Of a stretch of DNA of 64,000 nucleotides, positions 35,879-46,057 are shown one piece after another (the stretch's first letter is position 1; each line of letters starts with the position of its first letter). The translations under genes were made by a program, and so were the position numbers. Source of the DNA: Candidatus Bathyarchaeota archaeon (GTDB lineage: Archaea; Thermoproteota; Bathyarchaeia; Bathyarchaeales; Bathycorpusculaceae); contig OY970340.1 in the NCBI GenBank assembly GCA_963717465.1, forward strand, positions 2,336,001-2,400,000. Reading direction: 5' to 3'. Under the pieces are notes generated by a model that ran no database searches, was not told the origin of the DNA, and saw nothing but the letters and a program-made list of their open reading frames with translations.

Positions 35879-38398
35879 TTACGGCACAACTTTATGGCGG
35901 GGGATGTGGACGATGAATTTTGTGCCTTTGCCTGTTTCGCTTTCAAAAGACACTGTTCCGCCTAAGGCTTCAGTCATGCGTTTGACTACTGCTAAACCGA
36001 ACCCTTGACCTCTTGATTTAGTTGTAAACAGTGGAGTGAACAATTTGCTCTTTGCTTCTTCAGGAATTCCACTGCCAGAGTCAGTTACCGTAATTGCAAC
36101 GTTCTCTTTATCCATGCTAACGTTTATAGTGATTTTTCCACCGTTTGGCATGGCTTGAACCGAATTTGAAATCAAGTTGCTGATTATCCTTCTAAACAAA
36201 TCAGGATCTATCACAATCTTGCTTGCTTCTTTCTGAACTTTCGTTTCAACTTTAATCGTAGAAGGAAAATCATGCTTAGAAAGTATCAAATTAATTAGCT
36301 CTTCAATTTGAGTTTCTTTTAGGATAGGTCTGATAGGTTTCGCGTAATCTTGAAGGTCCTGCACAATTTTGTTAACGTAGTCAATGGAGTGCTCAATTGC
36401 TTTTACGCTTTCCAGTATGCTTTCTTTTTGTTTGCAATCTTGTAGATCAACTAGTTCTGTCTCCACCAAGTACAAGTCACCTATTATCGACTGCAGTGGA
36501 TTGCGAATGTCATGCCCAACCATACCTGCCGTGGCACCGATAGCCGCTAATCGTTCAGCGTCTTTAAGTTGTTCAAGTCTTTGCATCGCAAGAGACTCCA
36601 TCTGACTAGCGTACTCTTCAAGCTGCACTGCATTTTCTTCAAGCTTCTTCTGGGTTTCCTCTAACTGTGAGGTACGTTGTTTTAATGTCTCTTCAGCTTT
36701 CTTACGTTCAGTAATATCCATTGAGTAAATTCGAATACAGCGGCTATTAGGAACAAGGAAGAATTGCTGGCTATACCATTGGTTACCGATTTTAACTTCT
36801 CGGCTAAACGTACTTGATGCTTTGCTCTCAAAAGCTTTTACGACATCTTGCCAGTTAGACAAGAGAGGATGCGCTATGCCTAAGCTGCCAAAATTATCGA
36901 AGGTTTTAGCTGCCGGATTAGCATAGGTAATATTGCCCTCAAAGTCCATTTCAAAAATTGGATTAGGATTGAGCATTGGAAATGAAGCTAGTCTGGCAAT
37001 TTCATCTTCAGCTTTCTTGCGCTCTGTAATATCCGTAAGAATTGATAAAAAGTGTTCTTCTCCTTTGAAAGTAATTGTTACCGTTGAAATCAACAGACGC
37101 CTATATTCTTCTCCCCTAGTCTTGTACGTCCATTCATTGGTTGCGATTTTGTGTTGACTTGCCTTACCAATTATCTCCGCTCTGACTTTTGGGTCTGTCA
37201 CTATTCCCAGCTCAGCGGCCGTGTGCCCAATAATCTCATGTTTTTTGAACCCAAATAGTTGCAAGTAAGCTTCGTTTGCGTCCACAAATATAGTATCGTT
37301 AACTCTTTGGATTAGCATAGGATGAGGATTTGAGTTAAATGCCTTGGAAAAGCGTTCTTCACTCTCTTTAAGTTCTTCTTCAGCTTTCTTGCGGTTTGTG
37401 ATATCATTAACAACATAGCTGAATGTTGGGTTACCGTCCTTTTGAGTCCCCAGATAGGTGACTGTTGCTGAAAGCCAAGAATCTTTGCCGAGTTGGCTGT
37501 CAATGTACTCAAAAGTAACCGGTTCCCGGCTGTTTTGGCTTTCTTTGTAATGCTTGAGCCAAACTTTAACTCTTTCAAGGGGCTCTCCAAGTTCTGAACC
37601 TAGTTTATCTTTTAAGTCCTCAGGCTCTAAACCGATATAGCTAGCTGTAGCCTTGTTATCCTTTAGATGTCTAATATCTGCATCGTTGATAACTTCGACA
37701 ATGCCCTGCATAACTCCTTGACTGTCAAAAAAGCTGCTCAGCAAAGCTTCACTATGACTGAGGTTTTTTTCAACCTCTCTACGACGTACGATATCTTCCA
37801 TTAAAACCCATTTTTGACCCTGCTTAACTAGCGTTCCGGCATGATTGCGGATGACATCAATTACATCTGTGCCAGAGCAGTTAGGCAGATAATAGGTACA
37901 AAGAGCAAGCATCTTGTGCTTGCCAATAACCGTGTTTATAGCTTTTTCGTAATCAACAAAATTTTTCCAGAGATTGCGCTCTACCCAGAAAGTGTTACCG
38001 GTAAGCCGTAAACCTTCAAAACCAATTTTCAAAGCATTCTCCTCTTTCTTAACCCAACCATTTAGCACTCTGTCAGAGTCAAATTTTCCATCTTGCAAGT
38101 ACCAATTGTCATAGGAGATTACTTCGAACTGGTCTTTTTGCAAGTATACATCTAAATTCGGTATAGCTTTGGCAAGTGCTTGTTTGGCTTCTTCAACCTC
38201 AAAAGGTGGAGAAGTAACCCACATACAGAACTCATTGCTATGAAGGCCTTCCGAAAAGTAAGGAACCAAAATGTCGAGTAAGTCTTGTTTAGATTCGTAA
38301 AACTGACACAGGTGCGTTCCCCACGGTATATCTCCGACAAGATAATTACCAAATTTGCGAGGTTTATTAGTAGTATTTGATGATGACTTCTTTGGCAT
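35879..38398 (-). CDS. MEDS-PAS-PAS-PAS sensor histidine kinase
   Basis: WGTHLCQFY MEDS domain, repeated DITERK PAC ends, GHDIRNPL, HATPase boxes. Confidence 0.93.
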   Translation of the reverse strand: MPKKSSSNTTNKPRKFGNYLVGDIPWGTHLCQFYESKQDLLDILVPYFSEGLHSNEFCMWVTSPPFEVEEAKQALAKAIPNLDVYLQKDQFEVISYDNWYLQDGKFDSDRVLNGWVKKEENALKIGFEGLRLTGNTFWVERNLWKNFVDYEKAINTVIGKHKMLALCTYYLPNCSGTDVIDVIRNHAGTLVKQGQKWVLMEDIVRRREVEKNLSHSEALLSSFFDSQGVMQGIVEVINDADIRHLKDNKATASYIGLEPEDLKDKLGSELGEPLERVKVWLKHYKESQNSREPVTFEYIDSQLGKDSWLSATVTYLGTQKDGNPTFSYVVNDITNRKKAEEELKESEERFSKAFNSNPHPMLIQRVNDTIFVDANEAYLQLFGFKKHEIIGHTAAELGIVTDPKVRAEIIGKASQHKIATNEWTYKTRGEEYRRLLISTVTITFKGEEHFLSILTDITERKKAEDEIARLASFPMLNPNPIFEMDFEGNITYANPAAKTFDNFGSLGIAHPLLSNWQDVVKAFESKASSTFSREVKIGNQWYSQQFFLVPNSRCIRIYSMDITERKKAEETLKQRTSQLEETQKKLEENAVQLEEYASQMESLAMQRLEQLKDAERLAAIGATAGMVGHDIRNPLQSIIGDLYLVETELVDLQDCKQKESILESVKAIEHSIDYVNKIVQDLQDYAKPIRPILKETQIEELINLILSKHDFPSTIKVETKVQKEASKIVIDPDLFRRIISNLISNSVQAMPNGGKITINVSMDKENVAITVTDSGSGIPEEAKSKLFTPLFTTKSRGQGFGLAVVKRMTEALGGTVSFESETGKGTKFIVHIPRHKVVP

Positions 38399-38992: not shown

Positions 38993-39364
38993 CTGGGGAC
39001 GATAACTACGCCTGACTTAGGAGAAGCATTTAGTCTCGAAAAAAATGAATCAATCCAGTATACGATTGATGCCAGATTTGAACCGAAAAAGGACAACGAA
39101 GCAAAATCAGGCAACCTCATTTTGACAAGCCAAAATATCATATTCTTAGATAAGCAGAAAAACGTGTTATTTAGAGCCCCTCTGGAAAACATAGTTAAAA
39201 TTTCTAGAGGTCTAACGCATGATAAATCAATATCGATTTGGCTGAGAGATACTACCTAGCGTTCAATTTTTTCCGATTAATATTGATTTTGCATCTTTTA
39301 AAGAGTTATGTGCAATCTTTCCTAAGGTAATTTCAGCAAGAAAAAAGTGCGCTAATAATGGTTA
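38993..39364 (+). pseudogene. Possible PH/GRAM-like domain gene remnant
   Basis: Long open frame ...GNLILTSQNIIFLD...PLENIVKI with no canonical start; frameshift near 39258. Confidence 0.4.
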
Positions 39365-39580
39365 GCTCAAATTGAAGAGCGAAATTTTGCTTTAGAGTAT
39401 TTATATCAATCAACCTTCACTGGAACTAATTTAATATTCTTTTTAACTTTGTAAGACGCTTTTCTGCTTCTTTTCTTACAAAAGAAAAATTCTCCAAAGG
39501 CACTCTTGCATTCTTCTAGGCAATTAATTATAAATTCAATTGTTTGCTTTCTTGCTAATTCCTTCAGGAGAGATACCGCA

Positions 39581-40342
39581 ATGTCCAAAGGAAAATCAAT
39601 CAATGATAATGCAATTCCTATTGAGGCTCAGATTATGGTTAAGAATGCAATAGATTATGAAAAGGCGGGCAAATTTGAGAGCGCTTTGAGCGCACTGGAT
39701 GAGGCTGTTTTGATTCAACCAAACTTTGTTGATGCATGGCTAATGAAGGGCGTAACCTATGGCAAGTTAGGTCAATGCAATGAATCTATAAAATGCTATG
39801 ATAAAGTGATCGAATTAGACCCTGAACATTCAAATGCATTTAGACTTAAAGGGGCGATGTTAATGATGCAAAACTCGTTTGCAAAGGCAACTGATTGCTT
39901 CACAAAAGCCATCGAGTTAGAACCAAGCAACATGGAGCTTCGACATAGCCTGGCAACTTCTTTTCAAAAACAAAAAAAGTTTGAAGATGCATTCAAATGC
40001 TATCAGGACATACTAAAACATGAGCCTAAAAATCCTCAGATTCATTATTTAATCGGAATCACGCTGGGAAACATGGTTGACTATGAAAAAGCTCTCTCAT
40101 ATTTTGAAGAAGCACTTAAGCTAAAGCCTGATTATAACGATGCACACCTCGGCAAGGGGCTTATTTTGGCAAAACTCGGAAGAACTGAAGAAGCAAAACA
40201 ATGCGCTAATAAAGCATTGGGGATAAAAAAAGAATCGGGAAGTACTCATACCGATTCTATTCGTTCGCTAAATGATTCTTGCAGACTAGATTTTGAAGCA
40301 GCTCAAAAAAGATATAAACAAGCATTCTCTCCTCAGCATTAG
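39581..40342 (+). CDS. TPR repeat protein
   Basis: Repeated A..G...(Y/F)..A..L.P units. Confidence 0.9.
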   Translation: MSKGKSINDNAIPIEAQIMVKNAIDYEKAGKFESALSALDEAVLIQPNFVDAWLMKGVTYGKLGQCNESIKCYDKVIELDPEHSNAFRLKGAMLMMQNSFAKATDCFTKAIELEPSNMELRHSLATSFQKQKKFEDAFKCYQDILKHEPKNPQIHYLIGITLGNMVDYEKALSYFEEALKLKPDYNDAHLGKGLILAKLGRTEEAKQCANKALGIKKESGSTHTDSIRSLNDSCRLDFEAAQKRYKQAFSPQH

Positions 40343-40585
40343 GCAATTATGTCTCCCTCAAAACTAGTAAACTATTGAATTAAATTGAATTAAAATGACA
40401 ATTCATCAGTGGTTTAATTCTGTACAGTTTACAGTAAGCCATTAGTAAATTGGAATAATTCAAGACTAATGAATTAATAAAAATAGGACATATTTTTCTT
40501 TCTCGATCAGTTACTTATACCATTTGTTAAAAAATTCTCTAAAAAAACTTTAAAAAAATAAAAAAGGATGTTTGGATTATTCTTC

Positions 40586-42883
40586 TTATGGTCCGATCGG
40601 GCCGATGTTGGCTGAGTATACTTTTGCGAGTGCCGCTTTGAAACACCAAGCTCCAACTTCAGGGCTAAGCTGCTCCGCATCGTTCGGTATTGTAACGTCA
40701 ATGTTCCAGTCAGTCCATCCATGCAAGAATGGCTCCTCACCAGGCAACTCGGGACGCCACCAACCATGCTCAGGCGAAACAATCTTCGGATTAACGCCGA
40801 AATCGTACCGTACTTGTTGCATGCATCTTCCAACAGGAGTCTCAATGTAAACCCACTCGCCATCACCAATACCCATATTACGCGCCGTTAGTGGATGCAA
40901 CTTTACACGTGGAAAAGGCCGCAAATGACGCATCAAACTAATATGCCGCAATTCACCGTGATGAGCTTCCTGGAATCTTGCTCCACTGCACAAAATCAAC
41001 GGAAAGTCCTTAGCGATGTCAGGCGCACTGATCGGTGTCCAAGCACACTCCTGATAATACGGCAATGGATCATAATCGATCTGCTCCAGAATAGTTGAGT
41101 AGAAAGCAACTTTACCCTCAGGAGTACCAAAGCCTCTGACCTGTCCAGTCTCAGGATCAAGCTCCTCATACTTCTTGAACCTAGGTTCATACGGCGGAAC
41201 ACCCTTCCACTCCTCAATCACCTGTTTGCGCGTCCAACCAGCAGGCTCATAGAAAATGTCCTGAAACTCTTCTAGGGTTTTCCATCGCCAAACTTGATCA
41301 ATTTTTTCTTTGCCAAGCGTTCCAACTGCGAGGTCACGGTATATTAAGGCGTCATCTTTTAGATCCCACAAGCCAGGTATTTTCTCAGGCACTGCGCGAT
41401 CGCCAGCGATCTCAAACTCGATTTGACCTTGTCCTGAAACTGTCGCGTAGCCGGAATTTCTCTCAAATTGACTTGTTCCAGGTAATACGTAATCTGCGAT
41501 CATTGCTTCAGGCGTCATTTGAGCACATTCAATGTATACGAATAGTTCAAGCTTCTTCAAACCCTCATAAGCCTTCTTGATGTTTGGATAATTCCTCAAT
41601 GGACCGACTTCGCCAGAAATCATAGCTTTGATTGGATAGGGCTTCTCAGACACCATCGTGTCTATGAACGTTGGCCAGTTTGGACCTCTTGATCCAGAAG
41701 AGTGAGCACCACCCGTCCAGTATCCTTTAGAATCAGCTGCCTGATTAATCAACGGAGCAATCGTAAAGTTCAACGCTCTGTATTTATCGATTCCTACCTG
41801 CTTCATCATTTGTTCAACGTCAGCCTGTTGAACTATGTCATGGATTGCCATTGTTGCATTCATGAATTTCGGTTTTGCGTGTAGGTATTCGCCGCCTTCA
41901 ATATCGATGTTGCCGGTTAACGCGGGCATCATGTATTTTGCGCGAACGTTGCTTAAAGAGTTCCTGCCTGATGATTCAATCGCGTAGGCAAACGGGAAAG
42001 TGCATGGACTGTTCTTCGCTATGAACCTTGCTGCTTCCCTGATCTTCTCAGCTGGAATCCAAGTTATCTCTGCAGCCTTCTCAGGCGTATACTGCTTAGC
42101 CCGTTCCTTGAGCTTGTCAAATCCAAAAGTCCATTTCTCCACAAAATCATGATCATACAGGTCCTCTTCAATGAGCACGTTTATCATTGCCATAAACAAT
42201 GCAGCATCAGTCCCAGGTCTAATCGCCAACCATTTTTCAGAAAGCCTCGCAGTCTCGCTGAATCGCGGATCAATACAGAGCATTTTCGTGCCAGCCTCCA
42301 ATCCCGCAACGAAAGCAGGCCAAGAATAAGTCCAAGACTCACTCGGGTTCGTGCCTGCAACAAAGATACCTTTCGTCTTGCCAGGGATAATCATTGCATA
42401 CGTAATTCCCACGCCATAACCCAATCCTAGGGCTTGGTTCGTGGGTCCAGCTCATGTCTGAGCCGCAATCGAACCAAAATTCGGACTGCCAATCAAAACA
42501 AAATAACTAGCAAGCCCTAAACCTATGTTTGCGGCTCGACCTGTACCCCAGAAACCACAAGTAGTTTCAGCACCATACTTTGCAATGATTTCCTTCATCT
42601 TTTCGGATATTTCGCTTATTGCTTGTGCCCAGGATATTATTTGCCATTTGCCTTCGCCACGTTTGCCAATGCGCTTCATTGGGTACATTGGCCTGTCCTT
42701 GTGGTAAATGTATTCTAAGCTGTACTTCCACTTTTGACAGTACGGCCCGGGGTTAAACGGGCTTTCCCAGTCAGGCTCAACCTTAGTGATTTTTCCGTCT
42801 TCAACTGTCTCGAGCAATTGGCAGGATCCAGTACTGCAGAAACCGCATATGCATCTATGCATCTCTTTTTTAACTTCACTCAT
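40586..42883 (-). CDS. Molybdopterin (bis-MGD) oxidoreductase, acetylene-hydratase-like clade; predicted selenoprotein (Sec144, 765 aa)
   Basis: The two track ORFs are in the same frame, separated only by TGA 42452-42454. N-terminal CGFCSTGSC...C [4Fe-4S] motif, GSPNF...QT-U-AGP, IDPR, RPGTDAAL, C-terminal FPLIL...HPLTA...EHGWW. Confidence 0.85.
42408..42445 (-). promoter_or_regulatory. Candidate bacterial-type SECIS hairpin inside the CDS
   Basis: CCCACG-AA-CCA-AG-C-CCUA-GGAU-UGGG-UU-A-UGG-CGUGGG starts 7 nt after UGA; the apical loop begins GG at +25. Confidence 0.65.
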
Positions 42884-42978
42884 TATTTAATCTCCTAACT
42901 CATTTATCTCCTAATTCTTGTTTGCTTCTTCAGCACCGAATTGGATGTAACAGAAAATTAATAAAACTTGCGGTTTTA

Positions 42979-42997
42979 TTGTCGAAAATTTCAACAA
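42979..42997. promoter_or_regulatory. Imperfect palindrome upstream of the Mo-enzyme TATA box
   Basis: TTGTcGAAA-A-TTTCaACAA just upstream of minus-strand TTTATTAA (~42958-42965); adjacent Lrp gene. Confidence 0.4.
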
Positions 42998-43288
42998 TTT
43001 GTCATTGTGTATTATTTCTAACTTACATTTTGCAACATTGTTACAAATATTAGTAATTTTTTAAAACATATTCTCAAACAGTTCCGTCATAATTTTGCGA
43101 TAAAGTTCAGGGTTAATCAGTTATCTAAGTCTGTTAGTCCGAGAAATCCCATTTAACATTGGCTCAATTATAACCTTAAGCAAATCGACTTAACCAATAA
43201 GCGAATGCAGAAGTTCATATGGCTGAACTTAACAAGTTTTATTTTTATCATTTGTGTTACTCTAGTCCTTAATTATATGCAATAATTT

Positions 43289-43810
43289 TTAAGGTTGAAA
43301 AAGTGACTCCAAATTTCGCAGTGAAAAGGGTTTTGGAAACTTTTTGCCCGTGTAAAACATGAAGCTGTTTGTTTCAACATTTGGACGAAACATTGATTCT
43401 TTTTGCATTCTGTCAGATAGTTCTAGATAACTGTTGTATGTTTTGTGTGCTGATACGACTACCCAAGTGGTTCCTGCGAAACTTTGCTCCATAAACACGC
43501 ACAGTATTTCGGGCTGTTTTTGAATCAATTCTTGAGCTTCTTTAGCTTGTGCTGGTGTAATCACATCACTCGTTTTTGCGAATGAAAATACAATAAAGTC
43601 TAAGCCCATTTTGTGGAAGTCAGGTATTACAGTGTATTCTTTTATGTAGCCCTCTTGCTCTAACTTCTTTTTTCGTCTGGACAACGTTGCATTGCTTATT
43701 CCTAAGGTCTTGGCAACAGCTCTATCACTTTTGCCGCCAAGCGACATTAGAGCAAACAAAGCCTTCAGGTTTTCCTGTGCTTTCTTGTCCGACGTGTCTT
43801 GCTTGCTCAT
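43289..43810 (-). CDS. Lrp/AsnC-family transcriptional regulator
   Basis: SDRAVAKTLGISNATLSRRKKKLEQEGYIKEYTVIPD HTH. Confidence 0.9.
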   Translation of the reverse strand: MSKQDTSDKKAQENLKALFALMSLGGKSDRAVAKTLGISNATLSRRKKKLEQEGYIKEYTVIPDFHKMGLDFIVFSFAKTSDVITPAQAKEAQELIQKQPEILCVFMEQSFAGTTWVVVSAHKTYNSYLELSDRMQKESMFRPNVETNSFMFYTGKKFPKPFSLRNLESLFQP

Positions 43811-44023
43811 AATTAATTCTCAACTTCACATAGTATTCAGTATATTGTTTAAGTTTTTCGCGTTCATCGATAATTAAGAAAAAGGGCTTCTGTGACTTAA
43901 GTTAATATCAAGTGTTGTTTGTGTTACCGCTAGCTCGTCATATTTTGGCTATAGTTATCGCTTTTTCCTTATTTCCCAAAACTTTTTATAAAAGGTGTTC
44001 CTTAAAACGAAGCATTAAGGAGA

Positions 44024-46057
44024 TTGATAGAAGTGAGTGTAAAATTTAAATATCTTTTTTCTCCGTTGAAAATAGGGCCAGTGACAATTCCTAACAGAAT
44101 AATGTTGACTGGTCATAGTAATTTTCATGTAGATGAAACGGGAAACCCGACAGAATATTTGGCGTACTATCAGGCTGAAAGAGCAAAGGGCGGCTGTGGG
44201 CTAATATGCTATGGATTTATCTCAGTATATCCGAAGGAAATGGCGTGGGAGTATCCAAACTTCCGTTCTAGTTATACTACGCGTGCGCTTATACTTAATG
44301 CATATCCGCGTGGTCCTGACGAGGATTCTATTCCATCTCTGAAGAAAATTACTGATTTGTGTCACGATGCTGGCACTGGAACAAAGGTTTTTGCTCAGAT
44401 GGGTGCTAGTGGATGTTGGGAGGGTAGATGGGCTCCTTCCGAAACTGTAGACCCAGCAGATCCAAGAAAAACCAATATGGAAATGACTGAGGAGCAAATT
44501 GAAGCGGTGCTTGATGGTTTTGGAAAATCTGCCAAGAACATGTTAAAAGCAGGCTTTGATGGTATTGAAATTCATGATCATGGTGGCTTAGTACATCAGT
44601 TCATGTCTCCATTAACGAATAGGCGAAAAGACAAGTGGGGCGGAAGTTTAGATAATCGAATGAGATTCTTTTATGAAGCAATTAAAAGATGCAGAGAAAA
44701 CATGAGCAGTAATATGGCTTTGATTACTAGGCTTTGTGTTGATGAATTCGTTCCTAACGGAATAGGCGTGATGGATGGCGTGGAGATTGCAAAGCTACTG
44801 GAAGATAAGGTTGATGGTCTTGATATTGACATTGCAACTGAACCCGCATCCCTAAACGTTATAGTTGCTCCACTGTATATGGAGCCTGGCTACCAACTGT
44901 ATGGAGTTGAAGCGGTGAAAGAAGTCATAAAGAAGATACCTATAGGTTGTGTTGGTAGAATCAATGATGCAATGTTTGCTGAAAAAATCTTGGCTGAGGG
45001 CAAAGCTGACATTATAGGCATTTGCAGGGGACAGATTGCCGATCCTGAATTCTGTAACAAAGCTAAAGCAGGAAGACTAGACGATATAAGACCCTGCTTG
45101 TATGAGAATGAGGGTTGCATGAAAACAGGTTCTGTACAATGCACTGTAAACCCCACTAATGGATGCGAGAAGGCTTGGGGAATTGGAACAATTAAGTCTG
45201 CTGCAAAGAAAAAGAAGATTTTGGTTGCTGGTGCGGGTCCTGCAGGAATGGAATTTGCTAGAATTGCAGCTACCAGAGGGCACAATGTTACCATTTACGA
45301 AAAGTCAAATGATGTTGGAGGAGCCATTAATTTAGCTATGAAGTTGCCGGGAAGAATGGAATATGATGGTTTCAAGAGATGGCTAAAGATTCAGCTTGAC
45401 AAGTTGGGAGTTAAAATTGTCCTTAATAAGGAGGTTACGCCTGAACTTGTTAAGAGCGAAAATCCGGATGCTGTAGTAGTTGCTATTGGAGCAGACCCCA
45501 TGCGTGACGGCGACAACGCAGGCATGTATGCCGCAATTGATGGATGGAATCAGCCAAACGTTTGTGTAGGTGAAGACATACTTGAAGGCAAAGTTGACAT
45601 CAACAAACTTGGACCAAGAGTAATCATTTATGATCAAGTTGGCTATGATGAAGGCTTGGGAATTGCTGAAATGATTGCAGATGCTGGAAAACAAGTTGAT
45701 ATAAGGTCTGCAAGCTACTTTATCGGCGGTGCTGATATATTCCCGACTTTGCAGTTTGCACAATTGTTCCAGCGTCCAATGGAGAAAGGTGTGAAGCTTA
45801 GTCCAATGTCGTTGATGACTTACATTAGTGGGAACACAGTCGGGTTCATGAACAGTTTTACTCATGAAATGTACGAAGTCGAAGCTGACAATATTGTTCT
45901 CTGTGTAAGTAAAAAACCAAATTCTGAACTGTTCAAGAAGTTAATGGCGGCAGGATACAAACACAACGTAAACCTATACAAGATCGGCGATGCAAACGCT
46001 CCACACAATATCTGCGACGCCGTATACTACGGCCACGGCTTGGGAAGGGAAATCTAA
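44024..46057 (+). CDS. OYE-like NADH:flavin oxidoreductase with FAD domain (FadH/BaiCD/TMADH-like)
   Basis: LFSPLKIG..NRI, ERAKGG, AGFDGIEIH, NRRKDKWGGSLDNRMRF, GAGPAG, IGDA. Confidence 0.92.
   Translation: MIEVSVKFKYLFSPLKIGPVTIPNRIMLTGHSNFHVDETGNPTEYLAYYQAERAKGGCGLICYGFISVYPKEMAWEYPNFRSSYTTRALILNAYPRGPDEDSIPSLKKITDLCHDAGTGTKVFAQMGASGCWEGRWAPSETVDPADPRKTNMEMTEEQIEAVLDGFGKSAKNMLKAGFDGIEIHDHGGLVHQFMSPLTNRRKDKWGGSLDNRMRFFYEAIKRCRENMSSNMALITRLCVDEFVPNGIGVMDGVEIAKLLEDKVDGLDIDIATEPASLNVIVAPLYMEPGYQLYGVEAVKEVIKKIPIGCVGRINDAMFAEKILAEGKADIIGICRGQIADPEFCNKAKAGRLDDIRPCLYENEGCMKTGSVQCTVNPTNGCEKAWGIGTIKSAAKKKKILVAGAGPAGMEFARIAATRGHNVTIYEKSNDVGGAINLAMKLPGRMEYDGFKRWLKIQLDKLGVKIVLNKEVTPELVKSENPDAVVVAIGADPMRDGDNAGMYAAIDGWNQPNVCVGEDILEGKVDINKLGPRVIIYDQVGYDEGLGIAEMIADAGKQVDIRSASYFIGGADIFPTLQFAQLFQRPMEKGVKLSPMSLMTYISGNTVGFMNSFTHEMYEVEADNIVLCVSKKPNSELFKKLMAAGYKHNVNLYKIGDANAPHNICDAVYYGHGLGREI

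Follow-up and report, generated by a model that had tools for sequence, protein, structure and literature searches.

A predicted selenocysteine-liganded molybdenum/tungsten enzyme family in a Bathyarchaeia genome, with a candidate insertion hairpin inside the gene

Introduction

Selenocysteine (Sec) is the metal ligand of some molybdenum or tungsten (Mo/W) enzymes in the MopB/dimethyl sulfoxide (DMSO)-reductase superfamily, and the accessible text of a MopB survey limits this use of Sec to FwdB, FdhG and the cytoplasmic formate dehydrogenases (PMC10100899). For acetylene hydratase the same text lists Cys as the metal ligand. Reported as closest to acetylene hydratase are the catechol dehydroxylases Dadh, Hcdh and Dodh, Mo-dependent enzymes of gut Actinobacteria, for which the available part of the original description (eLife 2020, PMC7028382) reports many substrate-specific paralogues per genome, a soluble Gordonibacter type that has no signal for twin-arginine translocation (Tat), and homologues 'even in Archaea'. 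Here we describe a gene from this branch of the superfamily, located at 40586..42883 on the minus strand of a 64,000-nucleotide stretch (the window) of a Candidatus Bathyarchaeota archaeon (assembly GCA_963717465.1, contig OY970340.1, positions 2,336,001 to 2,400,000). Its codon 144 is an in-frame UGA which is very probably read as Sec, and a hairpin directly downstream of this codon is a candidate for the signal that directs the recoding.

The consensus for the bacterial Sec insertion sequence (SECIS) is that of Zhang and Gladyshev, summarised in the text seen of PMC13188914. Archaeal SECIS elements are placed in untranslated regions (UTRs) in the accessible parts of PMC9499178, PMC11227280 and PMC13188914, and the first of these gives a range of 70–1500 nt. 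Sec use has been reported for a crenarchaeal 'AK8/W8A-19' group (PMC5424206), and Sec-encoding Bathyarchaeota carrying a PSTK-aSelB fusion are in print, as stated in the available text of PMC8762117 and PMC9499178. A first interpretation of the window made from its letters (the sequence-only reading) had named the Methanococcales, Methanopyrus and Asgard lineages as the established archaeal Sec users; with these Bathyarchaeota already published, that list was incomplete.

Results

One reading frame with UGA at a predicted ligand codon

The segment 40586..42883 (minus strand) is a single frame of 765 codons followed by TAA, and its sole internal stop is the TGA at codon 144 (42452..42454). We annotate it as a complete selenoprotein gene on the evidence of this one open frame with its single TGA, its Pfam domains and its alignment to the acetylene hydratase structure 2e7z. 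The open reading frames (ORFs) 42452..42883 and 40586..42424 on the minus strand, which the sequence-only reading had joined, do share a common frame around the TGA: the minus strand of 40400..43100 contains GSPNFGSIAAQT-TGA-AGPTNQALGLGYG, and when the locus is translated with TGA as U to give the 765-aa read-through product, U144 is the single departure from table 11. As had also been supposed, UGA is normally a stop in this organism: of 35 stop-to-stop frames with at least 200 codons in the window it terminates 10, and in the genome, with the threshold at 250 codons, it terminates 350 of 1381. A genome-wide reassignment of UGA was rejected on the latter count.

Homologues identify the residue expected at codon 144. 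The corresponding column holds 106 Cys and 4 Asp in 110 full-length database homologues (P0012-P0121), and in the alignment to 2e7z U144 pairs with the Cys that follows GSPNW. This Cys is residue 138 of the 2e7z chain, which we take to be the tungsten ligand Cys141. The column supports the earlier proposal that codon 144 is Sec, for which Cys or Sec opposite it in homologues had been named as a check, and we predict that residue 144 is a Mo/W ligand.

The host genome is one closed contig of 3,053,889 bp (40% GC; C1 in the coordinates below), and its small-subunit ribosomal RNA scores 1474.8 bits to the archaeal model, top of the clan. It contains 11 copies of the gene with TGA at this site, eight of them otherwise intact, one with an interrupted N-terminus and two at decayed loci. 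The eight intact copies share 44–94% identity and have exactly one TGA each, always in the same column, in flanks that vary among copies (T, H, F, Q or I before U; A, D, F or Y after). That 11 paralogous copies all have TGA at one aligned position is a pattern beyond chance, and with 11 concordant copies in a closed genome a sequencing error is implausible.

Judged from its sequence, the product is a Mo/W bis-pyranopterin enzyme of the MopB/DMSO-reductase superfamily, within the acetylene-hydratase clade. Pfam places Molybdop_Fe4S4 at residues 11-61, Molybdopterin at 67-519 and Molydop_binding at 630-710. The first of these (PF04879; 42701..42853, minus strand) marks, together with the 2e7z alignment, the N-terminal [4Fe-4S] cluster domain, with Cys at positions 11, 13, 16, 21 and 49. 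By sequence 2e7z is the best solved relative (E 3.9e-108, residues 11-756 on 4-725), and it is also the top structural match (TM-score 0.88/0.93, root-mean-square deviation 2.6 Å, 32% identity) of an AlphaFold2 model made from a 50-row alignment (mean predicted local confidence, pLDDT, 88.7; predicted TM-score, pTM, 0.92). The structural runners-up are polysulfide reductase 2vpw (TM 0.76) and formate dehydrogenases (about 0.70). A Tat motif was not seen at the N-terminus MSEVKKEMHRCICGFC, the start of which reads MSEVKKEMHR. In our best explanation the enzyme would be cytoplasmic and of the monomer type, with an N-terminal [4Fe-4S] cluster, and Sec144 would replace the Cys that ligates the metal in acetylene hydratase.

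No NCBIfam equivalog cut-off is reached by the window protein, and two named identities were tried and rejected. Formate dehydrogenases have a Sec/Cys-His pair; here U144 is followed by Ala and TIGR01591 gives 233 bits against a cut-off of 666, in line with the earlier claim of an enzyme other than a formate dehydrogenase. Assignment as PhsA/PsrA (thiosulfate/polysulfide reductase), enzymes with a Tat signal and membrane partners, failed on NF012032 (253.6 bits against 694), the lack of an RR motif and the TM of 0.76 to 2vpw. TIGR03129 scores 23.9 against a cut-off of 327.8. The label 'acetylene-hydratase-like' given by the sequence-only reading stands for fold and clade only: in 2e7z the second cluster Cys is followed by Asp, the catalytic Asp13, and in the window protein by Ser17 (Ser or Gly in the other Sec copies). 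With the catalytic Asp replaced by Ser, the window protein is a clade relative rather than acetylene hydratase proper. Elsewhere in the genome, a 770-aa Cys paralogue of 34% identity (C1:1817831-1820047, plus strand), 2 kb upstream of the Sec copy p9, has C-x2-C-D and GSPNW..SMCMGNT as in 2e7z; as a candidate for a true acetylene hydratase it is to be preferred to the Sec family.

Selenocysteine machinery and further selenoproteins

The genome encodes a complete archaeal-type Sec pathway, comprising tRNA-Sec, SelD, PSTK, SepSecS and aSelB. Two tRNA-Sec(UCA) genes (C1:845695-845779 and c2829638-2829723) were found by aragorn and by Rfam RF01852 (71.8 and 61.8 bits, cut-off 47). SepSecS (489 bits) adjoins one of them. 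SelD (240 bits, over its cut-off) has its own in-frame TGA, in an HGUSCK motif. PSTK and aSelB are present as two fusion ORFs of 732 and 730 aa (C1:952742-954940 and c2827363-2829555), each with a KTI12/PSTK kinase, an EF-Tu-type GTPase (GTP_EFTU) and an aSelB_III domain; their named relatives at 69–70% identity are labelled Candidatus Bathyarchaeota or Bathyarchaeia, with one Nanoarchaeia and one Nitrososphaerota label among them. The two fusions are only 54% identical to each other, and one lies beside the second tRNA-Sec. The paired tRNA-Sec and PSTK-aSelB genes may constitute two Sec-decoding sets, perhaps for different RNA signals. Aragorn also reported a 98-nt 'tRNA-???' at c[904785,904882] with a four-base anticodon ccgg, possibly a tRNA with an intron or else an artefact.

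Further UGA/Cys pairs were sought in the genome and are present in HdrA, MvhD and SelD. HdrA and MvhD, both selenoproteins of the classical archaeal set, form an 854-aa fusion with two UGAs, both kept in the orthologues of three related genomes. A 416-codon ORF at C1:2822987-2824237 (minus strand), for which there is no Pfam match, has UGAs at codons 207 and 267, each with a downstream hairpin.

Given the homologues, the paralogues, the Sec machinery and the other selenoproteins, a nonsense mutation, a split gene or a reassigned code becomes very unlikely. We predict with high confidence that UGA144 is decoded as Sec. The best overall explanation of the locus is one Mo/W enzyme gene in which UGA144 specifies Sec, and to this we assign a probability of about 85%.

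A hairpin directly after the UGA

A 38-nt stem-loop (42408..42445, minus strand) begins 6 nt past the UGA and is a candidate in-gene Sec insertion signal on the evidence of folding, covariation and synonymous conservation. It has a lower stem of 6 bp (CCCACG/CGUGGG), a 2-nt internal loop and, capped by the 7-nt loop UAGGAUU, an upper stem of 8 bp from which one A bulges. Its minimum free energy (MFE) is −19.9 kcal/mol, which 4 of 200 dinucleotide shuffles equal or better. Energies across copies and at random TGAs were taken as the plain MFE of the 48 nt starting at +6; by this measure an equally stable fold follows 8 of 20000 TGAs picked at random from the genome, and the hairpin is found in all 11 copies at the +6 nt offset, with values from −15.4 to −21.8 kcal/mol.

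When the specified structure is imposed on the 11 copies (alignment A1), 89% of cells are paired, compared to 22.7–47.4% when the 3′ partners are slid. Changes on both sides, that is compensatory changes, occur at 5 of the 14 pairs, and none of 500 column shuffles matches the pairing or the covariation score of the real alignment. The copy of 44% identity has its lower stem rebuilt as CCAACG/CGUUGG, 1 nt farther from the UGA. Synonymous positions tell of constraint at the same place: among identical residues the fraction with identical codons is 0.527 gene-wide and rises to 0.737 over the 15 codons that follow U, and the eight highest-ranking windows out of 741 are all grouped around the UGA. 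This comparison was made on seven copies; it left out p2, which nearly duplicates p1, as well as p8 and the fragments. In five mappable Cys-form relatives from the same archaeal family, the sequence after the site reaches only −5.4 to −10.0 kcal/mol.

Similar elements follow UGAs in other genes of this genome. The hdrA and mvhD UGAs have hairpins at +6 nt with −26.0 and −22.0 kcal/mol, values that roughly one control in 10000 attains; in the orthologues from three Sec-using relatives the stems show no change while the loop and flanks vary. The apical loop starts 19–23 nt past the UGA in the Mo/W enzyme, in hdrA-mvhD and in the 416-codon ORF, the spacing in the Mo/W enzyme being 22 nt; all these distances are inside the 16–37 nt of the bacterial SECIS model (PMC13188914). 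We think it probable that recoding of UGA144 is directed locally by the 38-nt hairpin. Such a signal, at +6 nt and with its apical loop about 22 nt downstream, would have the geometry of a bacterial SECIS and would not be a UTR element of the kind used by methanogens and Asgard archaea. It might be read by one of the two PSTK-aSelB fusions or by another adaptor.

Several observations weigh against a local signal of this kind. Neither PSTK-aSelB has a bacterial SelB winged-helix domain at E<=0.1 (Pfam), so the bacterial mode of reading a hairpin is not available. The SelD UGA (C1:951702) is not followed by a hairpin of this strength, its −6.6 kcal/mol being reached at 40% of random TGAs, and the hairpin is thus not universal in the genome. 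The lower stem overlaps the conserved residues G-P-T and G-V-G, all of the covariation comes from related paralogues of one genome, and the single-sequence z-score is moderate (−2.41). The two Gs of UAGGAUU are at loop positions 3-4, and the bacterial consensus has them at 1-2, according to the available text of PMC13188914. Finally, 12 of 140 bacterial Cys homologues fold at or below −17.7 kcal/mol and so overlap the Sec range, a raw-energy comparison that is confounded by their mean GC content of 63%.

A genome-wide scan of folds after in-frame TGAs gave a mean of −8.38 against −8.49 for controls, that is, no difference. Several strong matches of the scan were ordinary stops followed by hairpins (a PurP tandem, QueT and eight more that were inspected) and were rejected. 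The scan alone does not discover selenoproteins.

Untranslated regions and alternative explanations

Local recoding by the hairpin has to be set against the possibility that Sec is indeed inserted at UGA144, but that the hairpin has some other role, for example in ribosome pausing, mRNA stability or protection of the UGA from release factor, with the true SECIS distal or trans-acting. The archaeal type of the aSelB, without bacterial RNA-binding wings, the SelD UGA without a hairpin and the placement of archaeal SECIS in UTRs by the literature (available text of PMC9499178, PMC11227280 and PMC13188914) would all agree with it. The UTRs of the paralogues speak otherwise. Downstream of the window gene a T-rich tract TTTTTTATTTTTTT (40552..40565, minus strand), by its sequence a likely transcription terminator, starts 21 nt after the stop codon, leaving no room for a 3′-UTR SECIS. 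In nine copies the 3′ UTRs are of 20–40% GC and unrelated in sequence, and in eight of the nine a T run (at least 5) begins 6–31 nt after the stop. Upstream, alignment of eight copies gives one conserved element, a Shine-Dalgarno-like box TAGGAGAT (42890..42897, minus strand) 7–14 nt before the ATG. No conserved structure was found in the 3′ UTRs (nine copies) or 5′ regions (eight copies), in an analysis that had no dedicated GAA_A/kink-turn search, and an Rfam scan of 39000..44000 of the window (E<=10) gave three chance-level matches and no SECIS family. The distance from UGA144 to the stop codon, 1863 nt, exceeds the 70–1500 nt range given in the accessible text of PMC9499178. Hairpins placed alike at +6 nt, with the loop 19–23 nt away, in three unrelated gene families are likewise difficult to reconcile with a distal element, and we consider a distal or trans-acting SECIS unlikely, local recoding by the hairpin being the reading we prefer.

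Two further explanations dispense with Sec in the product. UGA144 could be read through as Cys (from mis-converted Sep-tRNA-Sec) or as Trp, to yield an ordinary Cys-ligand enzyme: the ancestral residue at the site is Cys, and Sec/Cys cross-talk in such archaea is discussed in the text seen of PMC8762117. Against this, the genome has retained the whole Sec pathway, SelD and SepSecS among it, and TGA is kept in 11 copies though TGC or TGT is one mutation away, which argues that Sec itself is selected; this explanation is very improbable. The UGA might instead be a true stop, giving either a split gene, with a 143-aa Fe-S protein and a separate 612-aa catalytic protein starting from TTG at 42424, or a dead gene. 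Gene callers do split the locus in this manner, and the database relatives P0002-P0010 are 560–607 aa long and start at query residues 158-201. Yet the metal ligand would be missing from both pieces, the interruption coincides with the ligand codon itself in 11 copies (44–94% identity), eight of which have no other lesion, and the genome holds Sec machinery. The decayed copies look different again, with TAG/TAA stops and frame breaks. A true stop we regard as the most improbable of all, and Sec at UGA144 of a single enzyme gene remains our reading of the locus.

Paralogues, distribution and origin

A 74-row FastTree phylogeny unites the eight intact Sec copies in a single clade (support 98), the sister group of which is two metagenomic Cys forms, P0012 and P0013 (support 100). 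The copy p8, fragments, loci with a longest frame of <=600 aa and proteins of <=650 aa were excluded from this tree. The topology fits a single Cys-to-Sec switch followed by duplication. Decayed or interrupted copies, with frame breaks, TAG/TAA codons or as fragments, are located at C1:130832-133103, 616127-618946, 2797283-2799542 and 1076144-1076551, and three of them retain the TGA and the hairpin. The decayed copies point to ongoing birth and death in the enzyme family.

Sampling of 61 genomes from the genus showed SepSecS in 4. The enzyme family was found at E<=1e-100 in none of 119 other genomes of the genus, and at E<=1e-30 in none of the three other genomes of the genus that bear SepSecS. 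Across the archaeal family, 9 of 331 other genomes have it at E<=1e-100, all at <=41% identity; the match is without internal stop in seven of the nine, and the five matches with a mappable ligand codon have Cys. Among 162 mapped distant relatives from genome and metagenome contigs (<=41% identity) there are 140 with Cys and none with TGA at the site. One locus of 41% identity from another genus of the same family (L202, G296:C1:227370-229511) has Cys as the ligand and one in-frame TGA elsewhere, which may be a second Sec site or a lesion.

The database proteins of other NCBI contigs that cluster at >=90% with the paralogues are 560–607 aa long and begin at query residues 158-201. The closest of these (P0003, P0005-P0007 and P0010) are known from protein records alone. 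Their shortened sequences suggest that the same interruption may be present in sister assemblies.

Gene neighbourhood and possible function

Just upstream of the enzyme gene Pfam identifies a winged-helix regulator (HTH_24/MarR-like; 43289..43810, minus strand), and divergent from the regulator an old-yellow-enzyme (OYE)-like flavoprotein (Oxidored_FMN and Pyr_redox_2; 44024..46057, plus strand). For nine paralogues, the neighbours include a winged-helix regulator in five, an OYE-like flavoprotein in three and an MttB-superfamily methyltransferase in two. Each copy may be under its own winged-helix regulator, and some copies could work with ene-reductase-like flavoproteins. Two kilobases downstream of the window gene (35879-38398, minus strand) lies a sensor histidine kinase with an N-terminal MEDS domain and PAS, HisKA and HATPase domains, which may have a link to substrate sensing.

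Named bacterial relatives, at 30–34% identity, are mostly from Eggerthellaceae (Gordonibacter, Ellagibacter, Adlercreutzia and Raoultibacter). By analogy to the related catechol dehydroxylases the enzymes might act on aromatic or phenolic substrates, a suggestion we offer tentatively and with some doubt. It is drawn from the neighbours and distant relatives and from nothing further, and the Sec clade falls outside the Eggerthellaceae clade in a FastTree phylogeny built without the characterised catechol dehydroxylases, both of which count against it. In the 74-row tree the Sec clade is placed in a separate, uncharacterised environmental clade.

Discussion

Neither the selenoprotein family nor an in-gene archaeal signal was found in the open-access literature, supplements and figures being outside the scope of the search. 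The accessible text of a 2026 review of prokaryotic selenoproteomes (PMC13188914) and of a study of Asgard archaea (PMC11227280) contains no Bathyarchaeia, no acetylene-hydratase-like selenoprotein and no in-gene archaeal SECIS. We lean, with some reserve, towards the view that this lineage of Bathyarchaeia has a third Sec arrangement, in which archaeal/eukaryotic-type synthesis (PSTK, SepSecS and a PSTK-fused aSelB) is combined with UGA-proximal hairpins inside the ORF, without bacterial SelB wings, and in which the gene has spread to 11 copies. An in-ORF signal travels with its codon, and so would have allowed both the Cys-to-Sec switch and the spread to 11 copies.

If correct, no Sec-liganded member of the acetylene-hydratase/catechol-dehydroxylase branch would precede this family, and among selenoprotein families reported from archaea it would have the most paralogues. 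The use of Sec as Mo/W ligand would extend beyond the formate and formylmethanofuran dehydrogenases to which the available text of the MopB survey (PMC10100899) confines it, and into a clade of non-redox type, the chemistry of which (hydration, dehydroxylation) differs. The Sec and Cys forms would provide a natural pair for probing the role of selenium at a tungsten or molybdenum centre. There is also a practical consequence, since genes of this family are systematically mis-annotated as truncated 600-aa proteins and metabolic reconstructions of Bathyarchaeia thereby miss a whole multi-copy enzyme family. Were the in-gene hairpin the insertion signal, the textbook division between ways of marking Sec codons would no longer hold, and a short, defined RNA together with both PSTK-aSelB proteins would allow a direct test of how SECIS recognition evolved.

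Comparison with known systems

The Sec system already described for Bathyarchaeota (Mukai et al., Front Genet 2022, PMC8762117; review PMC9499178) has in common with the present genome the same fused PSTK-aSelB ORF, which occurs twice here. As far as their main texts go, these two papers concern the machinery and, unlike our analysis, give neither a selenoproteome nor a Mo/W enzyme nor an in-gene signal; the main text of PMC8762117 has no instance of the word 'SECIS' and a single one of 'selenoprotein', which is among the references.

With the bacterial SECIS the hairpin shares its position inside the coding sequence, directly after the UGA, and its form as a single hairpin. Its dimensions lie within the limits given in the available text of PMC13188914, with a 7-nt loop (3–9 allowed), an 8-bp upper stem (4–16 allowed), a 22-nt spacing (16–37 allowed), an MFE under −7.5 kcal/mol and GG in the loop. 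The setting is different, the host being an archaeon with a PSTK/SepSecS pathway and no SelB winged-helix domains.

As for the enzyme, the multi-copy pattern of the catechol dehydroxylases recurs in the window family, the copies of which also have local regulators. Unlike the catechol dehydroxylases, the Sec copies have no small 4Fe-4S protein or major facilitator superfamily (MFS) transporter within 1.5 kb, and the window family has a Sec ligand. The Sec-containing formate dehydrogenases and FwdB are also members of the MopB superfamily and have Sec at the homologous ligand loop, but they belong to another clade: TM is about 0.70 for formate dehydrogenase structures and 0.88 for 2e7z, and the residue after U in the window protein is Ala and not the His of formate dehydrogenases. 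Acetylene hydratase of Pelobacter (Syntrophotalea) acetylenicus (2e7z) and the window protein both have an N-terminal [4Fe-4S] domain, no Tat signal and a single subunit type, and in both the loop that follows GSPN contains the ligand residue. The two differ in the cluster motif, which is C-x2-C-x3-C in acetylene hydratase and C-x2-C-x4-C in the window protein, in the Asp that is Ser17 here, and in the ligand itself, a Cys in acetylene hydratase and, as we predict, a Sec encoded by UGA in the window protein.

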